Source: Verrucomicrobiota bacterium (GTDB taxonomy: Bacteria > Verrucomicrobiota > Verrucomicrobiia > Limisphaerales > UBA11358). From it: a stretch of 64,000 nt of DNA. Below, in pieces: positions 8,144 to 34,740 of the stretch. Positions within the stretch are counted from its first letter, which is position 1. Every line of letters starts with the position of its first letter. The DNA is taken from the NCBI GenBank assembly GCA_050010435.1, contig JBEKKZ010000008.1:5511-69510 (forward strand). The letters run 5' to 3'. Below the pieces are notes generated by a model. The model was not told the origin of the DNA. It searched no databases and was given only the letters and a program-made list of their open reading frames with translations. Made by a program: the position numbers and the translations under genes.

Positions 8144-9726
8144 GGGTTTTTACCTTTTGCCTGGCGTGGTGGCGACATGAAAATGGAAAGGTTGGGCTTG
8201 TCCCACTCGTGCCAGATGATATCCGACAATCCATCGCCGTTCAGGTCCTGGATTTCAATATAGCCGTGCGTCGGCACGTCGAAAGTCATGGCAGGTTGCG
8301 ACGCGAACCAGCGTCCGTTCGTCGTGCTGAGAAAAATGTTCCATTGAGTGTCCGAGCGTCTGACCAGAAGATCGAGACGGCCGTCGCCATTGAAGTCTCC
8401 TTGAACCAGGAACGGCCACCCGGCCAAAACTTCCGATGGCAGGATTCCCGTCACCGGCACGGACGCGTCCGGGCTGCGGGAAAAGGCGCCGTTATGGAAC
8501 GACCGGATCGTGAGCGCCCAATCCAATCCGTGTGAGACCACCGTTTCCACCAGTCCGCTCTCGGAGATAATGCGGGTCTTCATTTCGAGCAGAACCAGTT
8601 CGCATACACCATCGCCATCCAGATCATGCACGGGCGACCGCTTTTTCGTGGAACCGATGGGAATCGGGAACCCGCGACAGTGCAGCACTTGCGTCGGCTG
8701 CTCGGGCAACTTTTGGTCCGCGCCGCGCAGGAAGATATAAACGTCGGTTTTGAAATCCAGCTTGCCGCCGGCCTGCCACAGAATCAGGTCTTCCCGGCCA
8801 TCGCCATCCACATCCACGCGGTCCAGTTGTGGCGGACTCGCGGCGGTGGTTTTTTTCATGTCGGCGATGATCTTCCGGATGACTTCATTCTCCGGCTCCT
8901 TGTCCCGCGCCTGCTCCGGTTGGGCGCGAAACGATTGTTCAACGTCCAGGCTGTGCGCGGGATTGGGTCCCAACGCCCAAAAGTCGCGCCACAGGTAGCG
9001 GTTGACGTGCCAGGCCGTTTGTTTCACGTCGAGGGCCAGCGGCGGTCCGGGGCTCCATTCATAAGCGCTGTTCCGATGGTACAGCACGGTCTGCCCCGCG
9101 GAAATCACCGGGATTAAATCGTTCGTTCCGGTTTTGTTCGTGTTCAGCAAAGTCAGGGTCGGCAGGTCGTAGTTGGTGAATCCCTGGCTCACCTCGATGA
9201 GCGGGTGTCGCTCCGATTCGAACAAGCCGGCGTTCTGCCGACAATAAAACAGCCCGGCGGCGGTGGACATCAGCAGTTCGAGGCCGGGATGCGCATCCAC
9301 GTCGCATGGGGCGACCCAGGCGGTTTGTGGCGGCAGGGGGATGACCTGATCGGGTGAGTTGGTGAAGCCGTCCGGGCGCTGGCGATAGTTCAAAAGTTTT
9401 TTCTCCACCGTATCAATTACGAGCAGATTGCAGCGGCCGTTCCCTTCAATATCAACAAAAAGCGGCGCACCGGCGTTGGCTGGGAGTGTGATCAACTGGG
9501 GCAACAGCACCACCGGCTCGGCCCAGCCAACATTCACCGCGAGGAACAGCAATAGAATGGCAGCGCAAACGGAGTGCGGCCGTCCCGGCCGCAGCGTTGG
9601 GAAACTTTGCGGGGGCGTGGAAGTTTCCTGAGCCTTCGCACTCACCTCGTTGCTGCGGCCCGGAGGGCCGCACTCCGGAAGCAGGAGGCTGCCAGCGCTG
9701 GTTTCAGGTTGTGGGAGGAAAAACAT
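8140..9726 (-). CDS. FG-GAP/VCBS-repeat protein (secreted or membrane-anchored)
   Basis: Repeated DxDGDG Ca-binding-type motifs: DVDGDGREDLILW, DLDGDGVCELVLL, DFNGDGRLDLLV, DLNGDGLSDIIW. N-terminal hydrophobic segment. Its stop overlaps the start of the ATPase gene. Confidence 0.75.
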   Translation of the reverse strand: MFFLPQPETSAGSLLLPECGPPGRSNEVSAKAQETSTPPQSFPTLRPGRPHSVCAAILLLFLAVNVGWAEPVVLLPQLITLPANAGAPLFVDIEGNGRCNLLVIDTVEKKLLNYRQRPDGFTNSPDQVIPLPPQTAWVAPCDVDAHPGLELLMSTAAGLFYCRQNAGLFESERHPLIEVSQGFTNYDLPTLTLLNTNKTGTNDLIPVISAGQTVLYHRNSAYEWSPGPPLALDVKQTAWHVNRYLWRDFWALGPNPAHSLDVEQSFRAQPEQARDKEPENEVIRKIIADMKKTTAASPPQLDRVDVDGDGREDLILWQAGGKLDFKTDVYIFLRGADQKLPEQPTQVLHCRGFPIPIGSTKKRSPVHDLDGDGVCELVLLEMKTRIISESGLVETVVSHGLDWALTIRSFHNGAFSRSPDASVPVTGILPSEVLAGWPFLVQGDFNGDGRLDLLVRRSDTQWNIFLSTTNGRWFASQPAMTFDVPTHGYIEIQDLNGDGLSDIIWHEWDKPNLSIFMSPPRQAKGKNP

Positions 9727-9729
9727 GGG

Positions 9730-11358
9730 TTATTTCTGGCTGATGAATATGCGAAAGCCCTTTTGTTTTGCCAGTTTCACGATCAGATCACTGACGCCAT
9801 CGTTGTTCAGGTCCGTGACCTGCCATTCATCAATCGGTTCCGGGCAACTGAACCGCAGGTCCGGTTCCGGGCTGAACCCTTTCTCCCGCGAAACAAAGGA
9901 GTAAACCGAGATCGCATCACTGTGGTCTCGCACCAGCAAATCCGTTTTGCCATCCCCGTTAAAATCGCCGCCGAGTTTGACGTAGCGCCCGAAATATTCG
10001 GGCAGATCCTCCTGCATCTCGGCTCGGTCCAGATGGATGACCACGTCACGTTGACAGTCCGCTTCTTGTGGAAAGCCAATGCCGGGCCGGTAGAAGTAAA
10101 ACCGGAGATTGTAATCGAGCTTTTTGGAGGTGATCATCTTGCGAAGGCCCTCCTTGTCCTCGATGTGACTGTAGCCCAACACCAGGTCTGGAAAACCATC
10201 GCCATCCACGTCCACCACCGGCACCGCGGGCGTCCAGTCGTTCTTGCGAAAGACCTGTTGCGGTTCGGCCGGAATCCGGCCGTGCTCGTCGGCAATATAA
10301 GTGCTCACCAGCACTTTGCCGGAAGGAACTGCTGGTATGAATGAAGGCTCGTTCAGCCAGAGGCCCTTGATCAGATCCACCTTGCCGTCACGGTTCAGAT
10401 CGGCCCAGCAAAGCCATGAGAACGGTTCCACCTTATCCGCGTACGTTAACGCCGGTCCAAGAGCAAACAGTCCATTGGTCTGCTGCAGGTAAAGGCTGTA
10501 GGTGTTGGTCCAGCCATTACTGCGCCTGACCATCAGATCATCACGTCCGTCGCCATTGACGTCGCCCACGCTCAGGTCGAATTCAAACGACGTGGTATAT
10601 CCGGGATTAGCCACTGACGGCCACAGGCCGGCATCGATGGCCTGGCCGATGACTTGTGCCTGACGCCACTCGTCGCGATGTTGCCCGTCCTCCGTAGTCC
10701 CGATGAAATTGGGACGGAGGATGGACCAGACCTGAAGTCCGTCCACCGCCGGCACCAGCAGCAGCGGCCAGTCGCGGCCGGTTTCGACCGACAACGGAAG
10801 GTACATCGCGTTCGTGCCTTCCGCCGCATCCATCGCCTCCGGAACAATCGTGGCTTGCCTGATGATTTGCCGGATGGCGGGAGGACCGGTTCGATTGGTA
10901 AAACAAAGCTCAGTCACTCCGTCGCTGGTCATGACGAGCAAACTCTCGGCCGGCTTGCCCAGTTTGGCCGCCCAGACCAGACACGGCCGGGGCTCGAGAC
11001 GATAGGTTTGTTGCGGTTCGCGAGTGAAGCCGCGTTTGGGATCCTGGTAGAAGATGGATAGATTGGTATCGTCCATCAGAACCAGATCCTTGAGACCGTC
11101 ACCGTCCAGATCGCAGATCATCAACTGCTGGCATGGGCCGGCGATTTCACTGGCGTTGAACTTCGGTTTAGCCTGAGCCGATGAGCAGGCCAGAAGGGAA
11201 AGGCTCAACAGGACTAGCGGGAGTCTTCTCAGCTCCCATCCTCCGTAGCCGTGGCGGTAAGGGCGGGCCGACGCTTCAAGGGCGTCACTGGGAAGGGTGG
11301 ATGCGTCGTCGGCAGCAGCACTGCGGAGGGTGGATGACCTCGCTTCGTTTTGCTTCAT
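9730..11358 (-). CDS. FG-GAP/VCBS-repeat protein with signal peptide
   Basis: ORF 9730..11697. The upstream part of the ORF runs through REP sequence, so the start was moved to ATG 11358 (MKQNEA...RRLPLVLLSLSLLACSSAQA). Motifs DLDGDGLKDLVL, DVNGDGRDDLMV, DLNRDGKVDLI, DVDGDGFPDLVL, DFNGDGKTDLLV, DLNNDGVSDLIV. Confidence 0.75.
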   Translation of the reverse strand: MKQNEARSSTLRSAAADDASTLPSDALEASARPYRHGYGGWELRRLPLVLLSLSLLACSSAQAKPKFNASEIAGPCQQLMICDLDGDGLKDLVLMDDTNLSIFYQDPKRGFTREPQQTYRLEPRPCLVWAAKLGKPAESLLVMTSDGVTELCFTNRTGPPAIRQIIRQATIVPEAMDAAEGTNAMYLPLSVETGRDWPLLLVPAVDGLQVWSILRPNFIGTTEDGQHRDEWRQAQVIGQAIDAGLWPSVANPGYTTSFEFDLSVGDVNGDGRDDLMVRRSNGWTNTYSLYLQQTNGLFALGPALTYADKVEPFSWLCWADLNRDGKVDLIKGLWLNEPSFIPAVPSGKVLVSTYIADEHGRIPAEPQQVFRKNDWTPAVPVVDVDGDGFPDLVLGYSHIEDKEGLRKMITSKKLDYNLRFYFYRPGIGFPQEADCQRDVVIHLDRAEMQEDLPEYFGRYVKLGGDFNGDGKTDLLVRDHSDAISVYSFVSREKGFSPEPDLRFSCPEPIDEWQVTDLNNDGVSDLIVKLAKQKGFRIFISQK

Positions 11359-18281: not shown

Positions 18282-18318
18282 CGATGTTCACACGCGCACT
18301 GGACTTGAATGCGTTGCT
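18282..18318 (+). pseudogene. C-terminal remnant of a VOC-family gene
   Basis: cgatgttcacacgcgcactggacttgaatgcgttgct matches the 3' end of the intact VOC gene (about 17918-17954) except at 2 positions. It encodes MFTRALDLNALL versus MFTRTLDLNALL. It overlaps, in antisense, the last codons of the NMO gene. Confidence 0.65.
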
Positions 18319-19763
18319 GAAACCCTGGCTCCGTTGGCGGGCAGCGCCTCGTCCAACAAACAGCGTATGACGTCCGCGGCGGTGTAAGTGTCGCAACCCG
18401 GCTTGAGAAACCGCGCGACTTGCGCGACGTCGTCACCGGCGGTCATCAACGCCAATTCCTGTTCCATTTCGGAGCGCACCTGGTTGAGGCCGATGTTGGC
18501 GAGCAGTCCATTGCAAAGGCATTTGCGGCCTTGCGCGTCAGCGACAGTCCCGCCTTTTTTGACATAATCATCCACTGGCTCGGCCGGGCAACGGTAGCCC
18601 AGTGTCCCGTCCGGTTTGCGATAAAGATGCCGGAGATAACCCAGGTCGCAGATGCGCGTCCGGGCCGCATACTGATCGGCTTCTGAAAGCGTGCCGGGCA
18701 TCCGAACAACCTTGAACGGAAAACCGGTGGGCGAGGCAATCGGGTCGGTGAAAATATGCGCGGTGCCGGCGCGGCTCATTTGCAGAGCCTGCTGTTTGAG
18801 TTCGGGGCGCAGGCCGGATTCATTGCAAAACGCAAATGCCGTTCCCACCTGAATGCCGGATGCGCCAAGTCGCAAGGCCTCGGCCAGCCGGCCCGGCCGC
18901 CCATACGACCCGGCCAGCCAGAAGGGCCGGCCCAGCTCGCGGATTTTTTCGAGGTCAACGACATCGCGCGGGCCATATATCGGTTCGCCGATGGCGTTGA
19001 GTTGCAGCGGGCCGCGCGGCGGGGCGTTGTGTCCGCCGGCGGTGTCGCCCTCGACGACGAAGCCGTCCACGTGTCCGCTGGCCTTTTTGGCCAAAGCCAT
19101 GGCGAGGGTTACCGAGGCGACAATGCCGAGGAATTGCGGACGTTTCACCGCCGGGAGCTGGCCTTTGCAGAAGGCGCGCGGGTCAAACGAGGAAAGGAAT
19201 TCCTCGCCGGGCAACGCGCCGATGACGTCAATTTTTATTTGAGCCGGTTCGCCTTCCGCCAGACGGTCCAGCGCGCCGGGAATGGCGCGCGGTATGCCGG
19301 CGCCCATGAGCACGTAATCCACGTTGGCGAGCATCGCGCCATAGAGCGAGGGCAGGGTAGGCAGCTGGATTTTTTCGAGAAAATTAATTCCGACCAATCC
19401 GCCGTGGCCTTCCTTGGCCAGGAACACTTCCACGAAATTGGCCATGACCGTCAATTCGACGAGCGCCGGGCCGGGGCGGAGCGTCGGCATGGGAGCGATT
19501 TTGAATGGCGTGGCCGGAGATTTTCCGCCGGGAACGAAGTTTTGCGCCAGCACGCGCGCGGCGACTCCGGGAATCGGAAACTGTTGCACTGCACGGCGCA
19601 GGTGGCCCTGGGGATCGCCCATCTGAAGGGCGCGCGAGAAAACGATGGCCAGTCCCGTCCCGGAAACGACGCCAAGTTGCCCCAATTTGGAAACGGTGCG
19701 CGCCAAAGTCCAGCCGGACACGGCCACGCCCATCCCGCCCTGAATAATCTTCGGCTGTGACAT
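18288..19763 (-). CDS. Nitronate monooxygenase / 2-nitropropane dioxygenase family flavoprotein (long form)
   Basis: N-terminal IIQGGMGVAVSGWTLARTVSKLGQLGVVSGTG. Later FVVEGDTAGGHN and IQVGTAF. Confidence 0.8.
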   Translation of the reverse strand: MSQPKIIQGGMGVAVSGWTLARTVSKLGQLGVVSGTGLAIVFSRALQMGDPQGHLRRAVQQFPIPGVAARVLAQNFVPGGKSPATPFKIAPMPTLRPGPALVELTVMANFVEVFLAKEGHGGLVGINFLEKIQLPTLPSLYGAMLANVDYVLMGAGIPRAIPGALDRLAEGEPAQIKIDVIGALPGEEFLSSFDPRAFCKGQLPAVKRPQFLGIVASVTLAMALAKKASGHVDGFVVEGDTAGGHNAPPRGPLQLNAIGEPIYGPRDVVDLEKIRELGRPFWLAGSYGRPGRLAEALRLGASGIQVGTAFAFCNESGLRPELKQQALQMSRAGTAHIFTDPIASPTGFPFKVVRMPGTLSEADQYAARTRICDLGYLRHLYRKPDGTLGYRCPAEPVDDYVKKGGTVADAQGRKCLCNGLLANIGLNQVRSEMEQELALMTAGDDVAQVARFLKPGCDTYTAADVIRCLLDEALPANGARVSATHSSPVRV

Positions 19764-20261
19764 AATATAAACCGCACCACCAGCGCTTCACTCCCCAAGG
19801 AGAAAAGCTCACGACAGAAAAGTCAGGAATCACCGGAAAGGTGTTCCTTGAAACACCCTGGCGGGAATCCGTCGGAAACCGACGCTGGAAAAATTTAGGC
19901 TGGTTGCCGGTGGATAGAAAGCATTGTTTTGAAAAATCAGCGCCTTCTTTGAGTGTATGCGCAAGGCGCGCTCATTCCGTTTTTCCTGCTTTTCCTGAGG
20001 GCCGCTGATTTCAAGACGGGAGCTAAATCCATTATCCGGCCTGACAAAACCGGCGGCAAACGAGGTCAAGCATGCGCCAAAATCCGGTGAGACGTTCCTC
20101 ATCCGGCGCAGGATGGGGCTGTGGCTTTTGTCGGCAGGTTTTTTCAGAAAAAATGGAGCTTGCCCCTGCCAATAAAGGAATTAAACTCAAATCACACTAT
20201 GAAAGTGCAACCAATAGCACTTCACTTCTTAGGCTCACTTAACCGTTCGACAATGTAGCGT

Positions 20262-20564
20262 ATGGCTTTCAACCCGAGCGTTAAGGCGAAAATCGTGAAG
20301 GACTCCGCAGGGCAGTACATTCCCTGTGTGATGTGCGGTAGGTCTTTTCCACCACCAGATGCCGCTCATATCGTCGGCGAGGAGGAGTGGGTCCAGAAGA
20401 TTGGAACCGACTCCCAGGTCAACGGCCTGCCTCTTTGCAAGACGTGCCACACCGTGTTTGACGATTATCTCCGCAGCCGGCTGTACGCGGCATTGAAGGA
20501 GTTCGGCACCACGGGATTGCCGAAGTCTTGGGAAGTCAGTCCCAAGAAGCAGTTAAAGGAATGA
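20262..20564 (+). CDS. Small HNH (His-Me finger) nuclease-like protein; putative cassette A
   Basis: CVMCGRS...AAHIVGEEEW...NGLPLCKTCHTVFD gives the CxxC, H, N and CxxCH spacing of an HNH motif. 100 aa, in an AT-richer stretch. Confidence 0.6.
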   Translation: MAFNPSVKAKIVKDSAGQYIPCVMCGRSFPPPDAAHIVGEEEWVQKIGTDSQVNGLPLCKTCHTVFDDYLRSRLYAALKEFGTTGLPKSWEVSPKKQLKE

Positions 20565-20578
20565 GAATGTCGAAATCG

Positions 20579-20672
20579 CTCCAGCCAACCGGCATTGACG
20601 CCGTGAGTTTGTCCGTGAGCCACTCGGCTGTTCCGAGCCTCCGCGGTGCCGGTGGCTGAGTTGACGTTAGGC
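20579..20672 (+). other. attC-like imperfect palindrome 1 (R' = GTTAGGC; R'' degenerate)
   Basis: ctccagccaaccggc (20579-20593) pairs with gccggtggctgag (20648-20660), with extra unpaired bases on the left arm. Ends in GTTAGGC (20666-20672), which fits GTTRRRY. Confidence 0.45.
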
Positions 20673-20693
20673 GGCATCACACACTCACAAAAG

Positions 20694-21092
20694 ATGACCA
20701 CTATGAAAAATACAACGAGCATAATAGCATCAGTCGCCATCCTCTGGATGGTCGCGGTCGCTGGCTGTGCAGGGCCAGAGGGTAGAGTGAAGACGGCACT
20801 TTACGACACAGCACCCCGGTCAGCATCTACGCGACTAGATGTTTTTCAGGTCGGTGAGAAGCCCACGAAAGCCTTCCACGTCATTGCCTTTTTTACTGCG
20901 GAGGGCGCAGCGCACGACGAGGCCGAGTGTGTGCAGGGCATGGTTATTCGCGCCCGCCAAATTGGCGCAGACGGATTGGTGATTCTCGAACCGGAAGCGC
21001 CCAACAAGAGCATAGTTTTCAAGCATGGTCTGATTGGCCCGTCCCCGGACGCCCGCGTCTTTAAGGGCAACGCCATAACTTACGACAAGTGA
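20694..21092 (+). CDS. Small lipoprotein, unknown function; putative cassette B
   Basis: ORF 20646..21092 trimmed to ATG 20694 (MTTMKNTTSIIASVAILWMVAVAGC, which contains a lipobox). Confidence 0.6.
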   Translation: MTTMKNTTSIIASVAILWMVAVAGCAGPEGRVKTALYDTAPRSASTRLDVFQVGEKPTKAFHVIAFFTAEGAAHDEAECVQGMVIRARQIGADGLVILEPEAPNKSIVFKHGLIGPSPDARVFKGNAITYDK

Positions 21093-21108
21093 AGACCACA
21101 ACCCCGCC

Positions 21109-21261
21109 GCCTAACTGCGCTCCAGCGAACCGCCGTTATGCTTCTTCCGCCGTCGCTCAGAAGCTATGGCGGGACAGGCCGCTCGGTGCGGAGCGGCAAA
21201 CGCGCTCCCGCCATTGCGGGACTCAACCCTGCTCGCCAGCGGCGGTCGCTGGTCGTTAGGC
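21109..21261 (+). other. attC-like imperfect palindrome 2 (R'' GCCTAAC ... R' GTTAGGC)
   Basis: GCCTAAC (21109-21115; fits RYYYAAC) and GTTAGGC (21255-21261; fits GTTRRRY) are exact complements. The inner arms ccagcgaaccgccg and cggcggtcgctgg pair with one bulged base. The left spacer is longer than the right. Confidence 0.55.
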
Positions 21262-21268
21262 AAAGATC

Positions 21269-21721
21269 ATGAACCTTCCTCCCTTCGACGATCTGCTTGG
21301 CCGTGCTACCGATTGGGCTGAGCGCGAAAGCGCGCAAATTCTAGCGCGGGGCGCGCCGCTGTCGCCAGCCGGATTAGTACTCGCGCAGAAAGTTGGCGTC
21401 CGATGCCCGGAGAAGATCAGAATCGCGATTGTCCCCGCAGTCCCGTTTCCAGAAGATCCCGTTCTCCGAGCAATCGCGCGCGAGAAGAAGATGATCGCCG
21501 AGGATACCGGCGGAATGACCCTGTTCTACGGAATCTTCATCCGCGACGATCAGAAGCAAAGAAAGGATATTTGGCCGCATGAGTATCGGCACGTTGCTCA
21601 GTATGAGTGCTGCGGCTCGATACGGACCTTTCTCTCCTTCTATTTACGAGAAGTGATTCACTTCGAGTATGGACCTGGTCCATTTGAGGTAGATGCAAGA
21701 AAGGCGGAAGAAAATGCCTAA
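21269..21721 (+). CDS. Small HExxH protein (DUF4157-like putative metallopeptidase fold); putative cassette C
   Basis: GMTLFYGIFIRDDQKQRKDIWPHEYRHVAQYE resembles the DUF4157 pattern (Gly-hydrophobic stretch, then HExxHxxQ). The start is 7 nt after GTTAGGC. Confidence 0.55.
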   Translation: MNLPPFDDLLGRATDWAERESAQILARGAPLSPAGLVLAQKVGVRCPEKIRIAIVPAVPFPEDPVLRAIAREKKMIAEDTGGMTLFYGIFIRDDQKQRKDIWPHEYRHVAQYECCGSIRTFLSFYLREVIHFEYGPGPFEVDARKAEENA

Positions 21722-21737
21722 CCAGTCATCGTTAGGC
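21716..21737 (+). other. Collapsed attC-like mini-palindrome GCCTAAC-N8-GTTAGGC
   Basis: Perfect 7-bp inverted boxes separated by cagtcatc. The GCCTAAC box overlaps the TAA stop of 21269..21721. Confidence 0.45.
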
Positions 21738-21841
21738 TTCCAGAGTCTGCCTGCGCGGAGACGCCAGAGCTACAATGGTTCATTACAAAACAGCCAGATA
21801 CCAAAAACAAAACCTATTATTGGAAATACCGGAGCAAAATC

Positions 21842-22255
21842 ATGTGCTATTTCATGAAGGATGTTGCCGTTCCCATCATTACAACACTGCTCGGCACAGT
21901 CGGTGGATTTGTGTCTGGTGTTCTTCTCGAACGCTGGGCTAGCCGCCGAAGAGTTTGGCATGATTTCGCCATCGAGATTTGGTCTGTCATTCAGGAATTG
22001 AAGGCACGGGGAGAGAATCTGGATGAGGGATTTTTGAAATGGCATGATGATTCCATTCGACGACTTTCCGTCCATGTGGGATATTTTGCCATCAGCGAGC
22101 CCAAGTGGTGGGCAAGCGTTGAGCCCGCATGGAAAGAGTATGAGATGGCCAGCGAGAAAAAGACTCTTGAATCTTTCATGGCACACGACATTACACAGAA
22201 GAAGCTCCTTGCCCGTCTTTATGCGCTGCGAAAATCCATACAGGATGCCTCTTGA
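21842..22255 (+). CDS. Hypothetical protein with an N-terminal TM helix; putative cassette D
   Basis: VAVPIITTLLGTVGGFVSGVLL hydrophobic helix followed by a charged helical region. An antisense ORF (21770..22186) is less protein-like. Confidence 0.45.
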   Translation: MCYFMKDVAVPIITTLLGTVGGFVSGVLLERWASRRRVWHDFAIEIWSVIQELKARGENLDEGFLKWHDDSIRRLSVHVGYFAISEPKWWASVEPAWKEYEMASEKKTLESFMAHDITQKKLLARLYALRKSIQDAS

Positions 22256-22596
22256 GTGCGCAGATATGCAAACCCTTGATTATCAATCAGACCGCCATTT
22301 CTGCGCACTCGCGTCATTGCCCCAGCCAAAGGCTGGTTGGTGTGCTAACAAGGTCGGGAGCCTATGTGAAAACTCCCGGCGGGATTGACGGTTAAAAGCG
22401 GCGGCGAGAAGTGTTTTTTGCGGTTCGAGGTTTTTCCGCCCCGATGAAAAGTTCCGGTCGGGCCGTGGTGGGAGCGTTCACCGGAGTGGTGGGAACCAAG
22501 GACTGAGGTTTTTCCAGCCCGTGACGGTGCACTGGGCCTTGGCAAATCTTTGAACCGGGAAATCCCGCCGGTGTGGCTTGCGGAGTGCCAGCCGTA

Positions 22597-23127
22597 TCAC
22601 GCCTTGCGGTCGAAGAATGGATTTTTGCCGGTCACGCTCAATGGAATGCCGAGCGCCTGTTTGACCTTTGGCCCGAACATTCCCAAATCCATGCACGCCC
22701 GGCCGATGGAATACATGATGCGGTTGTCAATGTGGAACCGGCCGGCCACTTCCGCCGCCGACATGGTGGCGATGCCGAGGTCAATCGAGTTGAATGTGCA
22801 TGTCCCGCCGGCCATCTCCAGCGCTTCACAGGTCGGCTTGCCGCAGAACCCGCAGTTCAAGCCCGCGGGGTTGGGTTCCACGCCGATGATCACCAGCGCG
22901 GGCGAGTTCTCGATGTTGCCGGCGTCGCGCGCGAGGCCGGGCCGGCTTTCCTTTGTGGCAATCTCGCGCATCCTGGAGATGACCTTTTGCTTCGTCGGTT
23001 CGTCGTCAATCGCGGCGGTCTTGATGTTGTCAATGCCGCACGTCTTGGGCGCCGTCCGCGCCGCCGCGGCCATCAGCGCGGCGACCTGCAGTGCCGCCGA
23101 TTTTTCCAGTTCAGCCGGGGTTTTCAT
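22597..23127 (-). CDS. DUF2148-like ferredoxin-domain protein
   Basis: ORF trimmed to ATG 23127 (MKTPAELEKSA). Has the GLNCGFCGKPTCEAL cysteine cluster and the LSVTGKNPFFDRK tail typical of that family (recalled, not searched). Confidence 0.6.
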   Translation of the reverse strand: MKTPAELEKSAALQVAALMAAAARTAPKTCGIDNIKTAAIDDEPTKQKVISRMREIATKESRPGLARDAGNIENSPALVIIGVEPNPAGLNCGFCGKPTCEALEMAGGTCTFNSIDLGIATMSAAEVAGRFHIDNRIMYSIGRACMDLGMFGPKVKQALGIPLSVTGKNPFFDRKA

Positions 23128-23296
23128 GGCGGAAAAATACGAACCGTGTCGGGGGGAAACAAATGAAAAACGCAGGGGGAACATCGAATAATTTATAGCC
23201 GGTCAGAGACCGGCAAAGTGTGGGGCTTGTGTAACTCGCCCCTCCGATAAAACAATCGCCGCTTGCGACGGCGGGGGGAATGCCTAAATTAACCGT

Positions 23297-25217: not shown

Positions 25218-25601
25218 TTACTTTGTTCGACCGCACCAGGTGCAGGTATAGAGTCCCCGCGAATCGAGAACGAAGGTGGATTTGACCGAGAAGGAGTTAC
25301 AGCAACTACAGGTGGCCTTGTAAACCCCAAGTATGGGAGGCAGGCACAAAATCTCCCGGTCGCAAAAGGCGCAAACAATCCGATCCTTCTTGATTAAGAA
25401 ATCCGCGGTATCCTTTATCGAGCACTTGCAGGCCAAATGTGTCAGGCTTCCATGTAACAAATTGGCCAAGCCACTGTTTGCATTTTCCCGAGGCAACGGA
25501 TTTGCCTGTTGGATGGCGGTATTGTCTACCATAAACTTCATGGAAGCTGCGACTTTACTCTCCACCGCTCTACAGTAATCACTGCCCTCAATCTGAAACA
25601 A
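25218..25601 (-). CDS. Hypothetical Cys-rich (zinc-ribbon-like) protein; start uncertain
   Basis: Cysteine pairs CKC, CAFC, CSCC and CTWC. The stop is followed directly by the palindrome aaaccggttccggttt (sense strand). Lies in an AT-rich region. Alternative start at ATG 25541. Confidence 0.35.
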   Translation of the reverse strand: MFQIEGSDYCRAVESKVAASMKFMVDNTAIQQANPLPRENANSGLANLLHGSLTHLACKCSIKDTADFLIKKDRIVCAFCDREILCLPPILGVYKATCSCCNSFSVKSTFVLDSRGLYTCTWCGRTK

Positions 25602-25780
25602 CTTCCAAACTGATCGTGTTACAATAGTGCTGCCAATGTTTCATTTCTCAGCGACCAGATTTTCTGGAAGCATGACATTCCGAATTTTTTCCAGGAGCAA
25701 AACCTTCTCCAAATCTTTTGCCCGTGGCGGATACGAGCAGTGTAGATTTTTATGACATTTTTGTCAACAAATCATTACAT

Positions 25781-25817
25781 ATTGTGAATAACTTTCCTAA
25801 ATTGTGAATAACTTTTC
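25781..25817 (+). promoter_or_regulatory. Two phased direct repeats ATTGTGAATAACTTTYC (20-bp period) in an AT-rich intergenic region
   Basis: attgtgaataactttcc at 25781-25797 and attgtgaataacttttc at 25801-25817. Related half-sites ttgtgagcattta (~25892) and attgtgaacatgaaatc (25912-25928). Confidence 0.4.
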
Positions 25818-26045
25818 AAATGGTAAATAGTCCTTCCGATTCCGATGTGGAATGTGGATATCCCGCCTTGTGGTCAATAACCCCGGTCATTTTGTGAGCA
25901 TTTAATGGCCAATTGTGAACATGAAATCATTGTAAGTGCTCCGGCTTCCGACGACAACAGTAGGTGTGAAAATAAGAGGCAGTGTGCCTTGGATTAAACG
26001 GCGCGCGTGCAAACGGAAAGCCGCATAAAAGCAGTTTTAGAAAAC

Positions 26046-26210
26046 ATGAAAGAAACCATATCGGTGCCCGAGCCTTCCAGCCTCGGCCTGTTGATTTCCA
26101 GCCTCGGCCTGTTAATTGGCGGGTTGGGTCTGCTGATTTGGACCCATAGCACGCGGCGGCGGAATCTTCCGATCAAACCCCGTCGGGCGTTTACTGATTT
26201 TCGTGGATGA
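26046..26210 (+). pseudogene. PEP-CTERM anchor-only remnant (deletion derivative of the next gene)
   Basis: MKETIS is followed directly by VPEPSSLGLLISSLGLLIGGLGLLIWTHSTRRRNLPIKP. The leader (25995-26045) and the downstream tactgattttcgtggatgaacac block match those of gene 26331..26963. Contains a 21-bp tandem duplication (26076-26096 and 26097-26117). Confidence 0.6.
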
Positions 26211-26330
26211 ACACGGCATTACACAACGTAGAAAAAAGGGCAGCCGATCTAACGGCGCGTGCAAGCGAAAAGCCGCATAAAAGCAGCTTTAGACAACAGG
26301 AAAGCAATTAGACAACAGGAAAGCAACCAT

Positions 26331-26963
26331 ATGAAAACTTTAGCTATGAAAACCTTCATTACCGGGCTGGTACTCGCAGGATTCGTCGTGGCGTTCGCCG
26401 GCGCGGCAAATGCACAAATGATGACTGGGTCCATGGGTGTTGCTGCGGACCCGTTTGTAACTTTCACCGGTTCTTGGACCGCCTCCTCGCTCACAATGAG
26501 CGCCATCAATCTTATTACGACCAGCGAACAAGGCACCTTTCTTGCCCTAGTGCCCTCACACAGCGACCTTACGGCTTACACCACAACAATTACTGGTCTC
26601 TCTACCAGTCCTACGGCAGAAAACATTCCTGACTTTTTCGTCTTTTCTACGCCTGACGTCACATTTGCGACTTCAGGGACAACGCCTAACAACCGGTTTG
26701 AGTTCAACTTGGCCACAATTACGGACGTGGGGGGAGGTGTTTTCACCGGAACGGGAACGCTTGTCGACACCACAGCGGCCTACGCTAACACGCCAGGTAT
26801 ATTCACCCTTAGCTTCCCTGATGATGTCTACTCATTCACTATAGCGGCAGTGCCTGAGCCTTCCAGCCTCTGCCTGTTGATTGGCGGGTTGGGTCTGCTG
26901 GTTTGGACCAATCATGCGCGTCGCCGGAATCTTCCGATTAAACCCTCTCAGCGTGGTTACTGA
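26331..26963 (+). CDS. PEP-CTERM sorting-domain protein
   Basis: ORF trimmed to ATG 26331. Signal peptide MKTLAMKTFITGLVLAGFVVAFAGAANA. C-terminal VPEPSSLCLLIGGLGLLVWTNHARRR. Confidence 0.8.
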   Translation: MKTLAMKTFITGLVLAGFVVAFAGAANAQMMTGSMGVAADPFVTFTGSWTASSLTMSAINLITTSEQGTFLALVPSHSDLTAYTTTITGLSTSPTAENIPDFFVFSTPDVTFATSGTTPNNRFEFNLATITDVGGGVFTGTGTLVDTTAAYANTPGIFTLSFPDDVYSFTIAAVPEPSSLCLLIGGLGLLVWTNHARRRNLPIKPSQRGY

Positions 26964-26972
26964 TTTTCGTGG

Positions 26973-27644
26973 ATGAACACCGCATTACACAACGGAGAGG
27001 AAGTGATGGCCAATGTTGGCCGGGCCAACGGTGGCGCACGATACATGCCCCGGTTCGACCAAGACGGTCAAGACGGGTTGGGCAACGGTTTCACATCAGC
27101 CAAAGTCGAGGAGAGCTGTTGCGGTGAGGAATTAAAGCCTTTCTGGCTGGAGGACGGGCGTTTTGGCGCGGTGTGCAGAAAGTGCGGCCAGCAGTTCGCG
27201 GACAACACTCAGGTGCGGTATGGCGGTTCCCCGTGGATTGGGGTGGATCTGGACGGGACACTGGCCCGCGACCTTGGCAGCACGCGAGGGGACGAGATTG
27301 GCAGTCCGATTGAGCCGATGCTGGTCCGCGTGCAGAAATGGATTGCCGAAGGACGCACCGTAAAAATTTTCACCGCGCGCGCCTCCTCACCCAGGCAGGT
27401 GGTGGCGATAAAAGAATGGCTCGTCAGTTGTGGATTGCCGGATTTGGAAGTGACCAATGTAAAAGACCAGCGAATGATTGAGTTGTGGGACGATCGTTGC
27501 GTGCAAGTAACGACCAATTTGGGGGAACCCATCGGCAAAAAGGCGGGATTCAGGCACCCGAGACAGGCGAGGATGCGGGAAGAAGATCGGCAGGGAATAT
27601 CCTTGGGATTGTTCAACCGTCTCAGAATTTTATTGGCTCTATAG
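26973..27644 (+). CDS. Zinc-ribbon + HAD-superfamily phosphatase-like protein
   Basis: The N-terminal part has CCGEE...CRKCGQQF. This is followed by HAD motif I IGVDLDGTLA and KIFTARASS (motif II-like). The start is uncertain. Confidence 0.55.
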   Translation: MNTALHNGEEVMANVGRANGGARYMPRFDQDGQDGLGNGFTSAKVEESCCGEELKPFWLEDGRFGAVCRKCGQQFADNTQVRYGGSPWIGVDLDGTLARDLGSTRGDEIGSPIEPMLVRVQKWIAEGRTVKIFTARASSPRQVVAIKEWLVSCGLPDLEVTNVKDQRMIELWDDRCVQVTTNLGEPIGKKAGFRHPRQARMREEDRQGISLGLFNRLRILLAL

Positions 27645-27683
27645 TTCATGATTAATTTGAACCCAAAACCATTTCTTGGCGCA

Positions 27684-27762
27684 GGAATCGTGGCGTGTGA
27701 CCAGGATTCAAGCGGGCCCCCGCAAAAAAACTAATCAAAAAAAACAAAACTCGAATCAGAAA
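27684..27762 (+). repeat. Conserved ~80-bp leader block upstream of a PEP-CTERM gene, copy 1
   Basis: ggaatcgtggcg..ggattcaagcgggcccccgcaaaaaaactaatcaaaaaaaacaaaactcgaatcagaaaa. Compare with 28480-28557. Confidence 0.65.
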
Positions 27763-27767
27763 AGTTT

Positions 27768-28364
27768 ATGAAAATTAGAACGCTTGCAATTATGGCCGCG
27801 TTGCTGGCGGGTGCCGGTTTCAGCCGGGCGGATATCACGGGTATCAACATCTGGGATTATAACAACTCTGTTTTGACTTGTTCTTATGGCCCTCTAACAG
27901 GCAGCTCCGGTAACTACCAGTATGGCATTGATGGGACGCAGCTCGCATGGGCCGTGGGGAGCATGGGAGGCACTATCTCTACGGATGGGGACCCAACGCT
28001 GCAACTCGGCGAGCAAATTAATAATGATACCGGGTCAACTTGGAACGACTACCACGTCACGATTACGATGAGCCAGTCGTTTTCATTTTCCAATGTCGGC
28101 GTGACCAATGGTGGGTGGACAGACATTGTCACCGCGCCGACCTTGGTTGGCAGCGACTGGGTTGGGCACATCGACTATTATGCCGGCAATCTGGTTCCAA
28201 ATGGCGGCACGCTGGATTTTAGTCTTTCAATAGCCTTCACTGGAACTACGAGTTTTGAGGAAGATCTGATGCCCTCCACGGTCCCCGAGCCCGGGACATT
28301 CGCACTCATGGTTTGTGGGCTGACAGGTCTGTTGGTCATGCGGCGGCGTTCGGCCATGAAATAA
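27768..28364 (+). CDS. PEP-CTERM sorting-domain protein
   Basis: Signal peptide MKIRTLAIMAALLAGAGFSRA. C-terminal VPEPGTFALMVCGLTGLLVMRRR. Confidence 0.8.
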   Translation: MKIRTLAIMAALLAGAGFSRADITGINIWDYNNSVLTCSYGPLTGSSGNYQYGIDGTQLAWAVGSMGGTISTDGDPTLQLGEQINNDTGSTWNDYHVTITMSQSFSFSNVGVTNGGWTDIVTAPTLVGSDWVGHIDYYAGNLVPNGGTLDFSLSIAFTGTTSFEEDLMPSTVPEPGTFALMVCGLTGLLVMRRRSAMK

Positions 28365-28479
28365 CCAGATAACCATTAAAACCCGCCGTATTATGCGTAT
28401 TCCAGAGAACCCAATCAATCCCATGTCACTCCTTTGGTATCTGGATTACGCACTGGCCCTCTTTTTGATTTTTGTCACC

Positions 28480-28594
28480 GGAATCCTGGCGGGCAGCCGG
28501 GATTCAAAAAAAGCCCCCGCAAAAAGCTAATCAGAAAAACAAAACTCGAATCAGAAATGTATTCAAGCAGGCCCCCGCAAAAAACCAACTGAAG
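28480..28594 (+). repeat. Leader block copy 2, plus a third partial copy of the attcaagc-ggcccccgcaaaaaa motif
   Basis: ggaatcctggcgggcagccgggattcaaaaaaagcccccgcaaaaagctaatcagaaaaacaaaactcgaatcagaaatg, followed by attcaagcaggcccccgcaaaaaacc (28561-28586). Confidence 0.65.
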
Positions 28595-28630
28595 AAAAGT
28601 TAACAACAGCAACAAAAACAGAAAGGGAAT

Positions 28631-29290
28631 ATGACAGTACGGAAATTACAACTGGCGATCATGGCGGCCGGTTTGGCCGGTGCGATGAGTGCGAGCGCCG
28701 TAACCCTTACATTTGATAATGTAGACCCCTCCCAAACGGTAAATCTCACCGATCCTTGGATCTCAAGTGGAGCAAATGCCGGAATATACAATCTGACCGT
28801 GGATGGAGTGGCGACCCCCTCATTCTGCATTGATGTAGCTGACGAAAATAACGGGAATACGTTCAGCGACTACTATTATAGCGACCTTGCATCTGCTCCG
28901 CTGGCTCCCGCCGGTCCCATGGGCGCTACTGCCGCAACCGATGTCGAGAAACTATGGGCAGCGTACTACTCTCCCTCCATGGACAGCCTGGATGCCGCAG
29001 CCCTGCAGGTGGCCATGTGGGAGGACATAGCCGCGAAGGCCATAACTCCATACAGCATCACCGTGAGTGGCAATGATCCGGTTACAACCGAAGCCACCGC
29101 CATGATAGCCAACCTCGTTAACCTCAGTGCTCAGGCAGATCTGGTGGGTTTGGTGGGTCCCAATGGCCCCAGTGGTGAACAGAGTTATGTTGTGGCCGTT
29201 CCCGAGCCCACGACGGCTGGCTGTTTTCTGCTGGGCTTGGGTGCCTTGGCTTGTTTCCTGGTGCTTGAGACAAAAAGCCGGCGCGTTTGA
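28631..29290 (+). CDS. PEP-CTERM sorting-domain protein
   Basis: Signal peptide MTVRKLQLAIMAAGLAGAMSASA. C-terminal VPEPTTAGCFLLGLGALACFLVLETKSRR. Confidence 0.8.
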   Translation: MTVRKLQLAIMAAGLAGAMSASAVTLTFDNVDPSQTVNLTDPWISSGANAGIYNLTVDGVATPSFCIDVADENNGNTFSDYYYSDLASAPLAPAGPMGATAATDVEKLWAAYYSPSMDSLDAAALQVAMWEDIAAKAITPYSITVSGNDPVTTEATAMIANLVNLSAQADLVGLVGPNGPSGEQSYVVAVPEPTTAGCFLLGLGALACFLVLETKSRRV

Positions 29291-29349
29291 TTTCTGGCAC
29301 TCGAAATAATCCACAAACTTTCAATCCAAACAAACAAAACCTATCAGTT

Positions 29350-30228
29350 ATGGAAAATTCTAAATCAGGAAACCGCCCGTGTAACGCCAAAGTGAAACCA
29401 TCCATCAGTTGCGGGTATTTGATAGCCGCATTGCTGTTAACAGCAATGGCAGGTGTTTCCCACGGTGGCACGGTTGTGGTCACCCCTGGAAATATGGACG
29501 GCTGGGCTTTCTTGACCACGGACGCCGACGGTGTCGCGGCTCCAGGAAACGGCAATACCGCTCAAATGGTCACCGGGCCCGCCACTCCGCCGCTGGGCAC
29601 AGGAAGCGCTCAATTGGGCACGGCATCGGGTCAAGGCGATACATCTTCCCAAATCCGCAACACTGCCTACGCGGGCACCCCCCTAGCTGATCTAACTGTA
29701 CTTAGCTACTCGACCTACATGACCGCCAACAACGGCCAGCAGTTTCCCTATATCGAGTTGAATATCGCCACAACCGGCTCCGGCGCGCCGGACGACATAC
29801 TCTTTTTTGAGCCGCCCTATCAGACCCCCACCAGCGGCAATCCCAACCTTCTAAATCAGGGCGATTCTGTCCTCAACACATGGCAGACATGGAATGCTTT
29901 GGCGGGCGGCTGGTGGGACAACAATGGCGTCCTGAATCCAGGTACGGGCGTTGGTTCACTCGCTGACTATCTGGTCACCTACCCGGATGCAACAATTGAA
30001 AACTCGTCGGCCGGATACGGCGGCGTCCGCCTGACCGTTGGCTTTGCCTCCCCGGAAGACAATTTCAACGGCTACGTTGATAATGTCACCATCGGCACAA
30101 CCGGTGGAACAACCACCTACGACTTTGAACCAGCCACCGTTCCCGAGCCCACGACGGCTGGCTGTTTTCTGCTGGGCTTGGGTGCCTTGGTTTATTTCCA
30201 ACGCTTTACCCAAAAGCGACGTTCCTGA
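29350..30228 (+). CDS. PEP-CTERM sorting-domain protein
   Basis: ORF 29287..30228 trimmed to ATG 29350 (MENSKSG...YLIAALLLTAMAGVSHG). C-terminal VPEPTTAGCFLLGLGALVYFQRFTQKRR. Confidence 0.75.
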   Translation: MENSKSGNRPCNAKVKPSISCGYLIAALLLTAMAGVSHGGTVVVTPGNMDGWAFLTTDADGVAAPGNGNTAQMVTGPATPPLGTGSAQLGTASGQGDTSSQIRNTAYAGTPLADLTVLSYSTYMTANNGQQFPYIELNIATTGSGAPDDILFFEPPYQTPTSGNPNLLNQGDSVLNTWQTWNALAGGWWDNNGVLNPGTGVGSLADYLVTYPDATIENSSAGYGGVRLTVGFASPEDNFNGYVDNVTIGTTGGTTTYDFEPATVPEPTTAGCFLLGLGALVYFQRFTQKRRS

Positions 30229-30409
30229 TTCAGCGTAACATTCAAAATGCAGCAACATTCATTTGTTCTGTAAAAATGGGCACCGTATTGGGTCGGTTCA
30301 AAAATAAACAACAATAGGGCAATCGTGTGAAAGAAAGACTTCTGGATTAGGCGTCGAGCCAGAAGTCGCTTTCCGCGGTGGTCGAAAACAGAAGGTAAAC
30401 ATGAAAAAA
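30139..30409 (+). repeat. Conserved anchor+leader module A (PEP-CTERM codons, stop, ~170-nt intergenic leader, next ATG)
   Basis: Near-identical by eye to 31142-31413. Starts gttcccgagcccacgacggctggctgttttctgctgggcttgggtgccttgg and ends ...gtcgaaaacagaaggtaaacatgaaaaaa. Confidence 0.8.
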
Positions 30410-31231
30410 CTACAAATAGCAATATTCGCGATCAGTTTGGCCGGCGCAATGACCGCCAGCGCGCAGGTAACCATCACCGTCGATGCGACCATGGCCCCGA
30501 ACGGTTGGGGCTCGCCATCCTACGATACTTGGGCTGCAAACGGTATTTACGCCATGGAAAACGGTTTGACTTCGTATGGCGCCGCCGGTCCCGCGCAATT
30601 CAATGTCACGACCAGCCCGTTGCCCGTCGCCGCCAACTTCGCGACTGGTTTCAACTCTTGGTTGGGGCAAGCGCCGGGGCCGTACGCAGGCGAGCTTGGT
30701 AATCGGGCCTCTTTTGTGGCCGTGATCAACGGTAATGGCAGCTTGATAAACATGAATAACTTCGGCATGACCATGAGCAGTACCGACCCGGGAAATGCGC
30801 TTGGTTGGAGCTGGCCAAATAACAGTATTCTTCCGGGTGACTGGACTTACGACGCTGGTGACATCGGACTCATTTTCAATAATGGCGTCAATACTGCCGG
30901 CGGATTCACGGTTGTCAACAGTGGCGATCCCGGGCAAATGGTCAATGAAATCATCAGCATAGGAGCAGGCAACGCTTACGCTAGTTACGACACACTCGCA
31001 ACAGGCGATGACGACCCTAATCCTAGTGATACCGATCAACAAATCCTCAACTATGATATCGCGCAAGTAGGTAGTTATGACTTCACCGGCACTTTCACGT
31101 GCGGCGATGCCAGTGGCTCCGCCACCTTTGATTTCACCGCCGTTCCCGAGCCCACGACGGCTGGCTGTTTTCTGCTGGGCTTGGGTGCCTTGGTTTGTTT
31201 CCAACGCTTTACCCAAAAGCAACGTTCCTGA
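30401..31231 (+). CDS. PEP-CTERM sorting-domain protein
   Basis: Signal peptide MKKLQIAIFAISLAGAMTASA. C-terminal VPEPTTAGCFLLGLGALVCFQRFTQKQR. Confidence 0.8.
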   Translation: MKKLQIAIFAISLAGAMTASAQVTITVDATMAPNGWGSPSYDTWAANGIYAMENGLTSYGAAGPAQFNVTTSPLPVAANFATGFNSWLGQAPGPYAGELGNRASFVAVINGNGSLINMNNFGMTMSSTDPGNALGWSWPNNSILPGDWTYDAGDIGLIFNNGVNTAGGFTVVNSGDPGQMVNEIISIGAGNAYASYDTLATGDDDPNPSDTDQQILNYDIAQVGSYDFTGTFTCGDASGSATFDFTAVPEPTTAGCFLLGLGALVCFQRFTQKQRS

Positions 31232-31413
31232 TCCAGCGGGACATTCAAAAGGCAGCAACATTCATTTGTTCTGTAAAAATGGGCACCGTATTGGGTCGGT
31301 TCAAAAATAAACAACATTAGGGCAATCGTGTGAAAGAAAGAATTCCGGATTAGATGTCGAGCCAGAAGTCGCTTTCCGCGATGGTCGAAATCAAGAAAGG
31401 AAACATGAAAAAA
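31142..31413 (+). repeat. Conserved anchor+leader module B
   Basis: See 30139-30409. A third, anchor-only copy lies at 29198-29249. Confidence 0.8.
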
Positions 31414-34565: not shown

Positions 34566-34740
34566 GTCTTCGCTCGAAGCGCAGCGCAGGGCGAAGACTG
34601 CCGCGCCGTAGCGTGCAACGCGAAGGGGGGCTGAAGCTGTCGTTCCGTGATGCGCTTCGAGCTTCGACCTGGCAGGCCATTTATTCGCTGCTTGACCTTT
34701 TTGGACGTAATGGATTAACTGTGCGGCGTTAGGCAAATTC

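Follow-up and report, generated by a model that had tools for sequence, protein, structure and literature searches.

How do four small genes in one orientation come to form what looks like an integron cassette array when no integrase lies near them? The question arises from a 64,000-nucleotide stretch of contig JBEKKZ010000008.1 (GenBank assembly GCA_050010435.1, positions 5,511 to 69,510), which we call the window. Its host is an uncultured, Limisphaerales-like member of the Verrucomicrobiota from a peat bog. Positions 20246 to 22391 hold a block of four co-oriented gene cassettes between a nitronate-monooxygenase-like (NMO) gene and a DUF2148 gene. We conclude with high confidence that the locus is a chromosomal cluster of integron cassettes without a nearby integrase, i.e., what is termed a CALIN (attC sites clustered without an integron integrase). 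An initial annotation of the window had read the locus in the same way and had named three findings that would overturn this reading: no significant match to an attC model, palindromes that belong to a generic repeat family, or genes fixed in all relatives. None of these was what we found. The cassettes are delimited as follows.

20246-20666, + strand: cassette 1, 421 bp; open reading frame (ORF) 20262-20564, a 100-amino-acid HNH_2 endonuclease-like protein (Pfam PF13391, E = 3e-8)
20667-21255, + strand: cassette 2, 589 bp; ORF 20694-21092, a 132-amino-acid predicted lipoprotein (signal peptide and then VAGC, the lipobox being called by eye from the translation)
21256-21731, + strand: cassette 3, 476 bp; ORF 21269-21721, 150 amino acids with an invariant HExxH..QYE motif
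21732-22391, + strand: cassette 4, 660 bp if its end is G22391; ORF 21842-22255, 137 amino acids

All four ORFs listed in the initial annotation (starts at 20262, 20694, 21269, and 21842) are present, and its box sequences, their coordinates, and the box-to-ORF distances (27, 21, 7, and 104 nt) are correct. Its lengths for cassettes 2 to 4 (roughly 590, 475, and 660 bp) stand, and its 440 bp for cassette 1 becomes 421 bp.

Integron recombination starts from the bottom strand of an attC site, which folds and is bound by the integrase IntI; the enzyme cuts within the R box and joins the site to a partner at G/TT. The following three sites lie in the block.

20569-20672, + strand: attC site 1, 104 nt; R'' GTCGAAA, L'' CAGCCA-A-CCGGC, L' GCCGG-TGGCTG, R' GTTAGGC
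21109-21261, + strand: attC site 2, 153 nt; R'' GCCTAAC, L'' CAGCGA-A-CCGCCG, L' CGGCGG-TCGCTG, R' GTTAGGC
21716-21737, + strand: attC site 3, a collapsed 22-nt remnant, GCCTAAC-CAGTCATC-GTTAGGC, that overlaps the stop codon of ORF 3

We built two covariance models from sites outside the window. Model R1 came from six attC-like sites, found in arrays at the same locus in other contigs (L011, L098, and L099) and in an unrelated array (L094/L095). Model R2 came from eight attC sites of class 1 integrons carried by clinical plasmids: those of aadA2 (two plasmids), aadA5, aac(6')-IIc, aac(6')-Ib (two plasmids), arr-3, and blaIMP-6. On the + strand, R1 scored site 1 (20569-20675) at 38.2 bits (E = 3e-9), site 2 at 28.9 bits (E = 3e-6), and site 3 at 17.9 bits (E = 0.007); its next-best match in the window reached 14 bits (E = 0.12). 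The top three window matches of R2, also on the + strand, were site 2 (32.1 bits; E = 5e-7), site 1 (19.6 bits; E = 0.003), and site 3 (18.9 bits). The three sites are the three best matches of each model in the 128 kb of strand searched. Read on the minus strand, site 2 scored only 8.9 bits with R1. Model R1 in turn recognizes the class 1 attC sites located 3' of aadA2 (39.6 bits), aadA5, aac(6')-IIc, aac(6')-Ib, arr-3, blaIMP-6, dfrA14, and dfrA17. The three sites are therefore attC, by their structure and by recognition between the two models in both directions. The attC-model check that had been set beforehand as a test of refutation thus came out significant on all three sites, with R1 and R2 as surrogates.

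The bottom-strand folds agree with this identification. In the full sites of the window and the related arrays, R' and R'' are paired, a short spacer is unpaired, and a single T bulges from the '' arm of the L stem; this extra base corresponds to A20588 in site 1 and A21129 in site 2 (T on the bottom strand in both). In sites with an outer stem, a second bulged base follows 7 nt outward, and the extrahelical bases G16 and T23 of attC-aadA7 have the same 7-nt spacing (PMC5027507). Site 2 folds at -47.4 kcal/mol (z = -3.8; none of 200 shuffles was as stable) with its boxes paired and its extra base on the '' arm, as the initial annotation had described it. The fold of site 1 (20569-20672) is by itself nonsignificant (z = -1.4); both models recognize the site. 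Site 3 is a 7-bp hairpin (z = -4.2) without an L stem or a variable terminal structure. Across the six nonwindow sites, 84% of cells were paired and 9 of 22 pairs showed a compensatory change, whereas slid controls gave 28 to 40%. This alignment was registered by hand with the spacers padded with N, as MAFFT on full-length sites misplaced the left arms.

The R'' boxes carry a further signature of cassette origin. The R'' box of a cassette is expected to pair with the R' half at the 5' end of the same cassette, which is the mark of circular permutation. In four of the five informative cassettes, R'' fits its own 5' end better than it fits the R' that follows in the array. Site 1 is one such case: its R'' matches its own cassette's 5' end (G+TTCGAC) at 6 of 7 positions and the downstream R' at 4 of 7. 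The box had been called degenerate, and the site itself holds up as attC; its odd R'' is explained by GTCGAAA being the complement of G+TTCGAC. For site 3, an intact 64-nt counterpart (GCCTAACCAATCGCC...GACGTTCGGC) follows the homologous gene in L094/L095. The 22-nt site is this attC with its interior deleted, and both models align it in that way, as R'' plus 5 nt and about 3 nt plus R' with the interior gone. The collapsed site proposed at 21716 to 21737 is thereby borne out.

Palindromes between small genes need not belong to an integron. They could instead be repetitive extragenic palindromic (REP) sequences, bacterial interspersed mosaic elements, or terminator hairpins in a variable island, for example of defense genes. 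A terminator scan did flag the hairpin at 21716 to 21737 (minus strand), and homologues of cassettes 1 and 3 occur without attC in restriction-modification and abortive-infection neighborhoods. We nevertheless consider this reading very improbable, as R2, built from class 1 sites only, matches exactly these palindromes and only in the cassette orientation. No other significant copies occur in the window or, outside arrays, in related DNA: R1 had no match at E < 0.1 in the rest of the 64 kb, and when 94 other loci totaling 1.42 Mb were searched at E up to 1, its matches all lay in cassette arrays. Over this span, which is less than the whole genome, the palindromes do not behave as the genome-wide REP family that the initial annotation had named as a risk. 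In addition, allele boundaries fall at GTT to the base, and R'' fits the 5' end of its own cassette.

Simpler searches gave the following background. The heptamer GTTAGGC/GCCTAAC occurs seven times on both strands of the 64 kb, against 3.8 expected from shuffles, and five of the seven copies fall in 20666 to 21737; by our own arithmetic, such clustering in about 1.1 kb has a chance of roughly 1e-6. Rfam found only two tRNAs in the window and no match at the attC sites. A strict pattern-and-duplex scan (RYYYAAC...GTTRRRY with paired arms) recovered site 2 alone; the scan is a blunt one, with background reaching -29 kcal/mol once in 2.56 Mb of shuffles. The related-looking GATTAAC-N8-GTTAGGC at 34712 to 34734, upstream of mreB and downstream of a tRNA-Met gene, was rejected as attC, scoring at chance level with R2 (9 bits; E = 6).

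The natural history of the block is seen in its relatives. The closest relatives of the NMO protein (86 to 96% identity) are in Verrucomicrobiota/Limisphaerales metagenome-assembled genomes (MAGs) from peat, bog, and soil, and the gene is kept at this identity in array-bearing and array-free MAGs alike. The closest relatives are without the whole block (19985-22540). In L008, L014, L016, and L019, homology to the window ends at 19984 and restarts at 22541, with about 65 bp in place of 2.55 kb; the distance from NMO to DUF2148 is 350 bp in the array-free L008 and L014. The inserted block also includes noncoding sequence at both ends, with the following features.

19985-20245, + strand: leader, 261 bp, noncoding, ending in cTTAGGC (20228-20234), ACTTAAC (20237-20243), C, and G20245
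20160-20187, + strand: candidate outward promoter in the leader, TTGCCC (20160-20165), 16 nt, TAAACT (20182-20187), an 8/12 promoter-like match
20237-20247, + strand: junction ACTTAAC-C-G/TT, an attI-like or secondary site with its crossover at G20245/T20246
22343-22397, + strand: putative degenerate terminal site, TGCTAAC ... CGGGAG-loop-CTCCCG ... GTTAAAA, boxes approximate
22398-22540, + strand: trailer, part of the inserted block, with the direct repeat GAGGTTTTTCC at 22427 and 22505

Further leader-bearing metagenome contigs were retrieved with a 20-mer from the leader, which is found in array-bearing lineages only and is absent from L008, L014, L016, and L019. In L011, L096, L097, L099, and L100, the leader is kept, with indels, up to ...CTCACTTAAC-Y-GTT, after which the contigs diverge completely; we take the leader to be noncoding because it is conserved with indels. 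Five different first cassettes follow the same GTT: one in the window and L101, one in L011, L097, and L100, and one each in L096, L098, and L099. The window continues as GTT/CGACAATG and the other alleles as /AGGCGACT, /AGCCATAA, /CGGCGTCA, and /AGTCCACT. The lineages that carry them are about 5 to 7% apart in NMO protein. This divergence places the true junction at G20245/T20246, 11 nt downstream of the cTTAGGC at which the initial annotation had put the left boundary. The fourth-best R2 match in the window begins at the junction (20237; 14.5 bits; E = 0.12). The L011 array has two cassettes, and an array identical to the four-gene array of the window is present in eight metagenome or MAG contigs from different samples. 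Among relatives, then, the genes are not fixed: some, at 86 to 96% NMO identity, are without the block, and others have different cassettes at this junction.

Several of these contigs also carry a palindrome-rich insertion of 129 bp within the leader (…GTAGGGCCGCG…GCGCCGCCCTAC…; L011 8216-8337, also in L097, L099, and L100), possibly a small REP- or miniature inverted-repeat transposable element-like element; the window and L096 lack it.

At the other end of the block, the right part of the terminal site (from GAGCCTRTGTGAAAA on) is common to all array alleles, and the left 15 to 17 nt follow the last cassette. The shared right arm and loop of the terminal hairpin read GAGCCTRTGTGAAAACTCSCGG...GGTTRAAAG in the window, L011, L096, and L098; a single compensatory change preserves the 6-bp hairpin between the window and L011. 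In L096, the left arm resembles that of L011 and the right arm that of the window, as would be left by homologous recombination or by a chimeric assembly. Neither R1 nor R2 matched the terminal site (22343-22397), which leaves the weak site suspected at about 22340 to 22396 unsupported. The right boundary of cassette 4 is tied to this site and is likewise uncertain. The trailer (about 145 bp) is present in L011 and L100, partly deleted in L096, and absent or strongly diverged in L008, L014, L016, and L019.

How the array was founded bears on what the junction is. It may have been seeded by a trans integrase at a secondary genomic site of the attG type (GWT/GTT) and still be serviced in trans, without ever having had an integrase of its own; we regard this as a real possibility that falls short of an even chance. 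Insertion at GWT genomic sites has been shown experimentally and proposed as the origin of small CALINs (bioRxiv 10.1101/2022.09.11.507474). The empty site that we reconstructed, ACTTAAC-Y-G/TTAAAAG, is a plausible target, and a lone and apparently decayed copy of cassette 1 lies beside recJ in another contig. However, the 261-bp leader and the trailer are also missing from array-free relatives, so the block is not a simple insertion into ancestral intergenic sequence, and the use of one exact junction by five cassettes is more attI-like than expected of a random attG. This reuse, at a divergence of a few percent, favors an attI-like site that was active recently. We tentatively propose, at less than even confidence, that the leader junction is a working acquisition site served in trans by an IntI from elsewhere among peat Verrucomicrobiota, and an active exchange point at the population level, as opposed to a decayed remnant, that prefers small defense-type genes such as those for the HNH nuclease and the HExxH protein.

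No integrase gene was detected in the window. The families PF00589 and PF13495 had no match on any called gene or on long ORFs of uncalled stretches in the 64 kb, and tblastn of IntI1 (a query 100% identical to annotated intI1) gave no match below E = 1, in agreement with the earlier claim that the window holds no tyrosine recombinase. The array lies 20 kb and 41 kb from the two window ends. The attC sites, which start at 20569, 21109, and 21716, share the + strand and lie within 4 kb of each other in an integrase-free neighborhood. The locus thus corresponds to a CALIN as defined for IntegronFinder (two or more attC sites that share a strand, are separated by less than 4 kb, and have no integrase nearby; PMC4889954). 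It does not have the arrangement of a complete integron: the divergent neighbor is the NMO-family gene rather than intI, and the leader offers an attI-like junction and the 8/12 promoter-like match.

The missing integrase could also mean that the array is the inert fossil of a complete integron in which intI, to the left of the leader (the old attI and cassette promoter region), has been deleted. The cassette differences would then predate the loss of intI or have arisen by homologous recombination between strains. The leader end is indeed attI-like (ACTTAAC-N-GTT) and divergent from the neighbor gene, as in integrons. Site 3 has collapsed and the terminal site has degenerated, eight contigs of different sample origin carry the identical array, and L096 resembles a homologous recombinant inside the terminal site. 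We find such a fossil possible but rather doubtful. The tblastn search with IntI1 showed no intI pseudogene in the window, and just 261 bp separate the NMO promoter region from the junction. Moreover, five first cassettes at about 5 to 7% NMO protein divergence imply recent turnover. Absence of a nearby intI pseudogene is itself reported for 95% of CALINs (PMC4889954).

On the reading as a CALIN that we favor, each of the four units is a promoterless ORF followed by its attC, a kind of unit that moves as a circle. Recombination by an integron integrase at the G/TT of R' has only indirect support, from alleles that part right after GTT and from the circular-permutation signature. The array hangs from the fixed junction ACTTAAC-C-G/TT at its leader end. 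This junction behaves like attI or a favored secondary site, having received different cassettes in different lineages. Because the window is without an integrase, IntI-mediated movement would be catalyzed from elsewhere in the genome or from a visiting element, or would have been catalyzed in the past only. Cassette 3 is probably frozen in place, the interior of its attC being lost, and the terminal site is degenerate. Expression of the array may start from the leader promoter: the candidate at 20160 to 20187 was not flagged by a promoter scan and is conserved in the leader alignment with one substitution.

Several points weigh against the reading as a CALIN. The attC calls come from the surrogate models R1 and R2 rather than from IntegronFinder's own model, and the R2 alignment was fitted to the R1 structure. 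Full attC sites follow only two of the four cassettes, and the 22-nt site 3 is far below any functional attC in size. At the other extreme, site 2 (153 nt) exceeds the other attC sites compared, which span 57 to 145 nt in related arrays and class 1 plasmids. The alleles were read from assembled metagenomes, where repeats can give rise to chimeras. At the terminal site, a conserved right arm with a cassette-specific left arm is not predicted by a G/TT crossover. Finally, no IntI was found in any related locus, which leaves a cognate integrase in the lineage without support; among the matches listed in a search for IntI1 homologues, class 1 relatives dominate and none is a Verrucomicrobial integrase.

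What the cassettes encode is only partly apparent. PADLOC and NCBIfam gave no credible function for any of the four proteins beyond HNH_2, and Pfam, NCBIfam, and PADLOC returned no family matches for the products of cassettes 2 and 4, the latter having a single N-terminal hydrophobic helix. The product of cassette 3 is a putative small zinc metallopeptidase: HExxH..QYE is invariant in the alignment of homologues, the AlphaFold model has a predicted local distance difference test score of 91, and its fold matches, weak as they are, are all zinc metallopeptidases (the VgrG2b effector domain and BlaR1). The whole of cassette 3, from its 5' end to R'', is homologous to a cassette in the unrelated metagenome array L094/L095.

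Homologues of cassette 3 also occur at two loci outside cassettes (L092 6747-7199 and L093 10001-10474). One is downstream of a TIR-domain gene, separated from it by one gene of 222 amino acids, and another overlaps the stop codon of an Abi_2 gene that neighbors an MmeI-type restriction system. The family may thus be one of defense-linked small proteases.

The gene of cassette 1 has an 84%-identical copy at L109 7968-8540 (also in L110), between a GYF_2-domain gene and recJ. There, GTCGAAC and part of the attC left arm remain after the stop, without R', so that the copy resembles a lone cassette in decay. In many Verrucomicrobiia contigs (L111-L114 5965-10867), a homologue of 71% identity lies between a DNA methylase gene and a ResIII/RE_endonuc gene. 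Neither an integrase nor attC was found in the contexts of the cassette 1 and cassette 3 homologues outside arrays. A defense-related bias of the cassette content is possible.

The window was surveyed through Pfam-annotated gene calls and scans of long ORFs in uncalled stretches. The two flanking genes are as follows.

18288-19763, - strand: NMO gene (Pfam PF03060, E = 4.6e-14), transcribed away from the array
22597-23184, - strand: DUF2148 gene, a ferredoxin-domain protein (Pfam PF09918, E = 1.4e-27)

The flanks have a G+C fraction of 0.60 to 0.61, the leader one of 0.50, and cassettes 1 to 4 have 0.57, 0.59, 0.54, and 0.50. The array had been described as visibly more AT rich than its flanks; its G+C content is lower, but the contrast is modest and is smallest for cassette 2. 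Other genes of the window are housekeeping ones by Pfam, including mreBCD-pbp2-rodA and those for RNase E/G, CTP synthase, succinate dehydrogenase, and uxaC.

The interval between NMO and the gene p590 is a general rearrangement hotspot in the clade. In L009, L010, L012, L013, L015, L034, and L036 (at about 9500 to 10000 or the equivalent), array and DUF2148 are both missing, with varied deletion end points. Extra DNA between p590 and DUF2148/NMO in L016, L019, and L022 was considered as further cassettes; this was rejected for L016 and L022, in which it is an ABC-ATPase gene.

Two other regions of the window stand apart. At 47373 to 48695 is an IS5-like DDE transposase gene (DUF772 plus DDE_Tnp_1), on either side of which the metagenome contigs matching the window stop; this gene is probably repetitive and interrupts short-read assembly. 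At about 26000 to 31300 lies a cluster of paralogous genes, none with a Pfam match, whose upstream regions are repeated too. The 3' segments of these genes, likewise repeated, code for PEP-CTERM-like anchors (VPEP..hydrophobic..RRR), and a low-G+C stretch (0.40 to 0.43) at 25400 to 26000 precedes the cluster. PEP-CTERM-like protein tails are also encoded by the alternative cassettes of L096 and L098.

CALINs are common but are usually known only from software predictions made genome by genome. For this locus, natural populations supply supporting evidence: the same integrase-less junction carries five first cassettes, and the closest relatives are array free. The locus is thus a convenient natural test of trans cassette exchange in integrase-less arrays, and it shows that in a phylum that has received little study, attC sites are built like those of clinical class 1 integrons. 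A previous survey had already recorded integrons in Verrucomicrobia (PMC4889954), and the current understanding of integrons is unchanged by our results.

The locus resembles other CALINs in its same-strand attC sites at spacings below 4 kb, in the unknown function of the cassettes in its small array, and in having no recognizable intI pseudogene. Unlike them, it has a fixed, attI-like first junction with five alternative cassettes and one attC of 22 nt, and its sites were called with surrogate models. With class 1 attC sites (the 59-base elements, such as attC-aadA2 and attC-aadA7), the sites share R'' RYYYAAC and R' GTTRRRY, an imperfect L''/L' stem, an unpaired spacer, a pair of extrahelical bases at a 7-nt spacing on the '' arm, the G/TT crossover, and recognition by covariance models in both directions. 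Sites 1 and 2 (104 and 153 nt) are longer than those of aadA2, aadA5, aac(6')-IIc, and aac(6')-Ib (57 to 72 nt), although the arr-3 and blaIMP-6 sites reach 114 and 127 nt. Further differences from class 1 are the GTTCGRC/GYCGAAC boxes found beside GTTAGGC, the Verrucomicrobium host, and the lack of resistance genes in the cassettes.

Cassettes off an integron platform, joined at a G/TT-type triplet, are also known from attG insertions and SALINs (Loot et al., bioRxiv 10.1101/2022.09.11.507474); here, there are several cassettes instead of one, and the same junction is reused. The sedentary chromosomal integrons of Vibrio and Xanthomonas are likewise chromosomal, with small ORFs that are unknown or defense-like and with cassettes that vary from strain to strain. 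Their attC sites form one sequence family, as do the sites here with their L-box motifs AGCGA-A-CCG and CAGCCA-A-C. In contrast to those integrons, the array has no adjacent intI and only four cassettes, and the block is missing from the closest relatives and is not ancestral to the clade.

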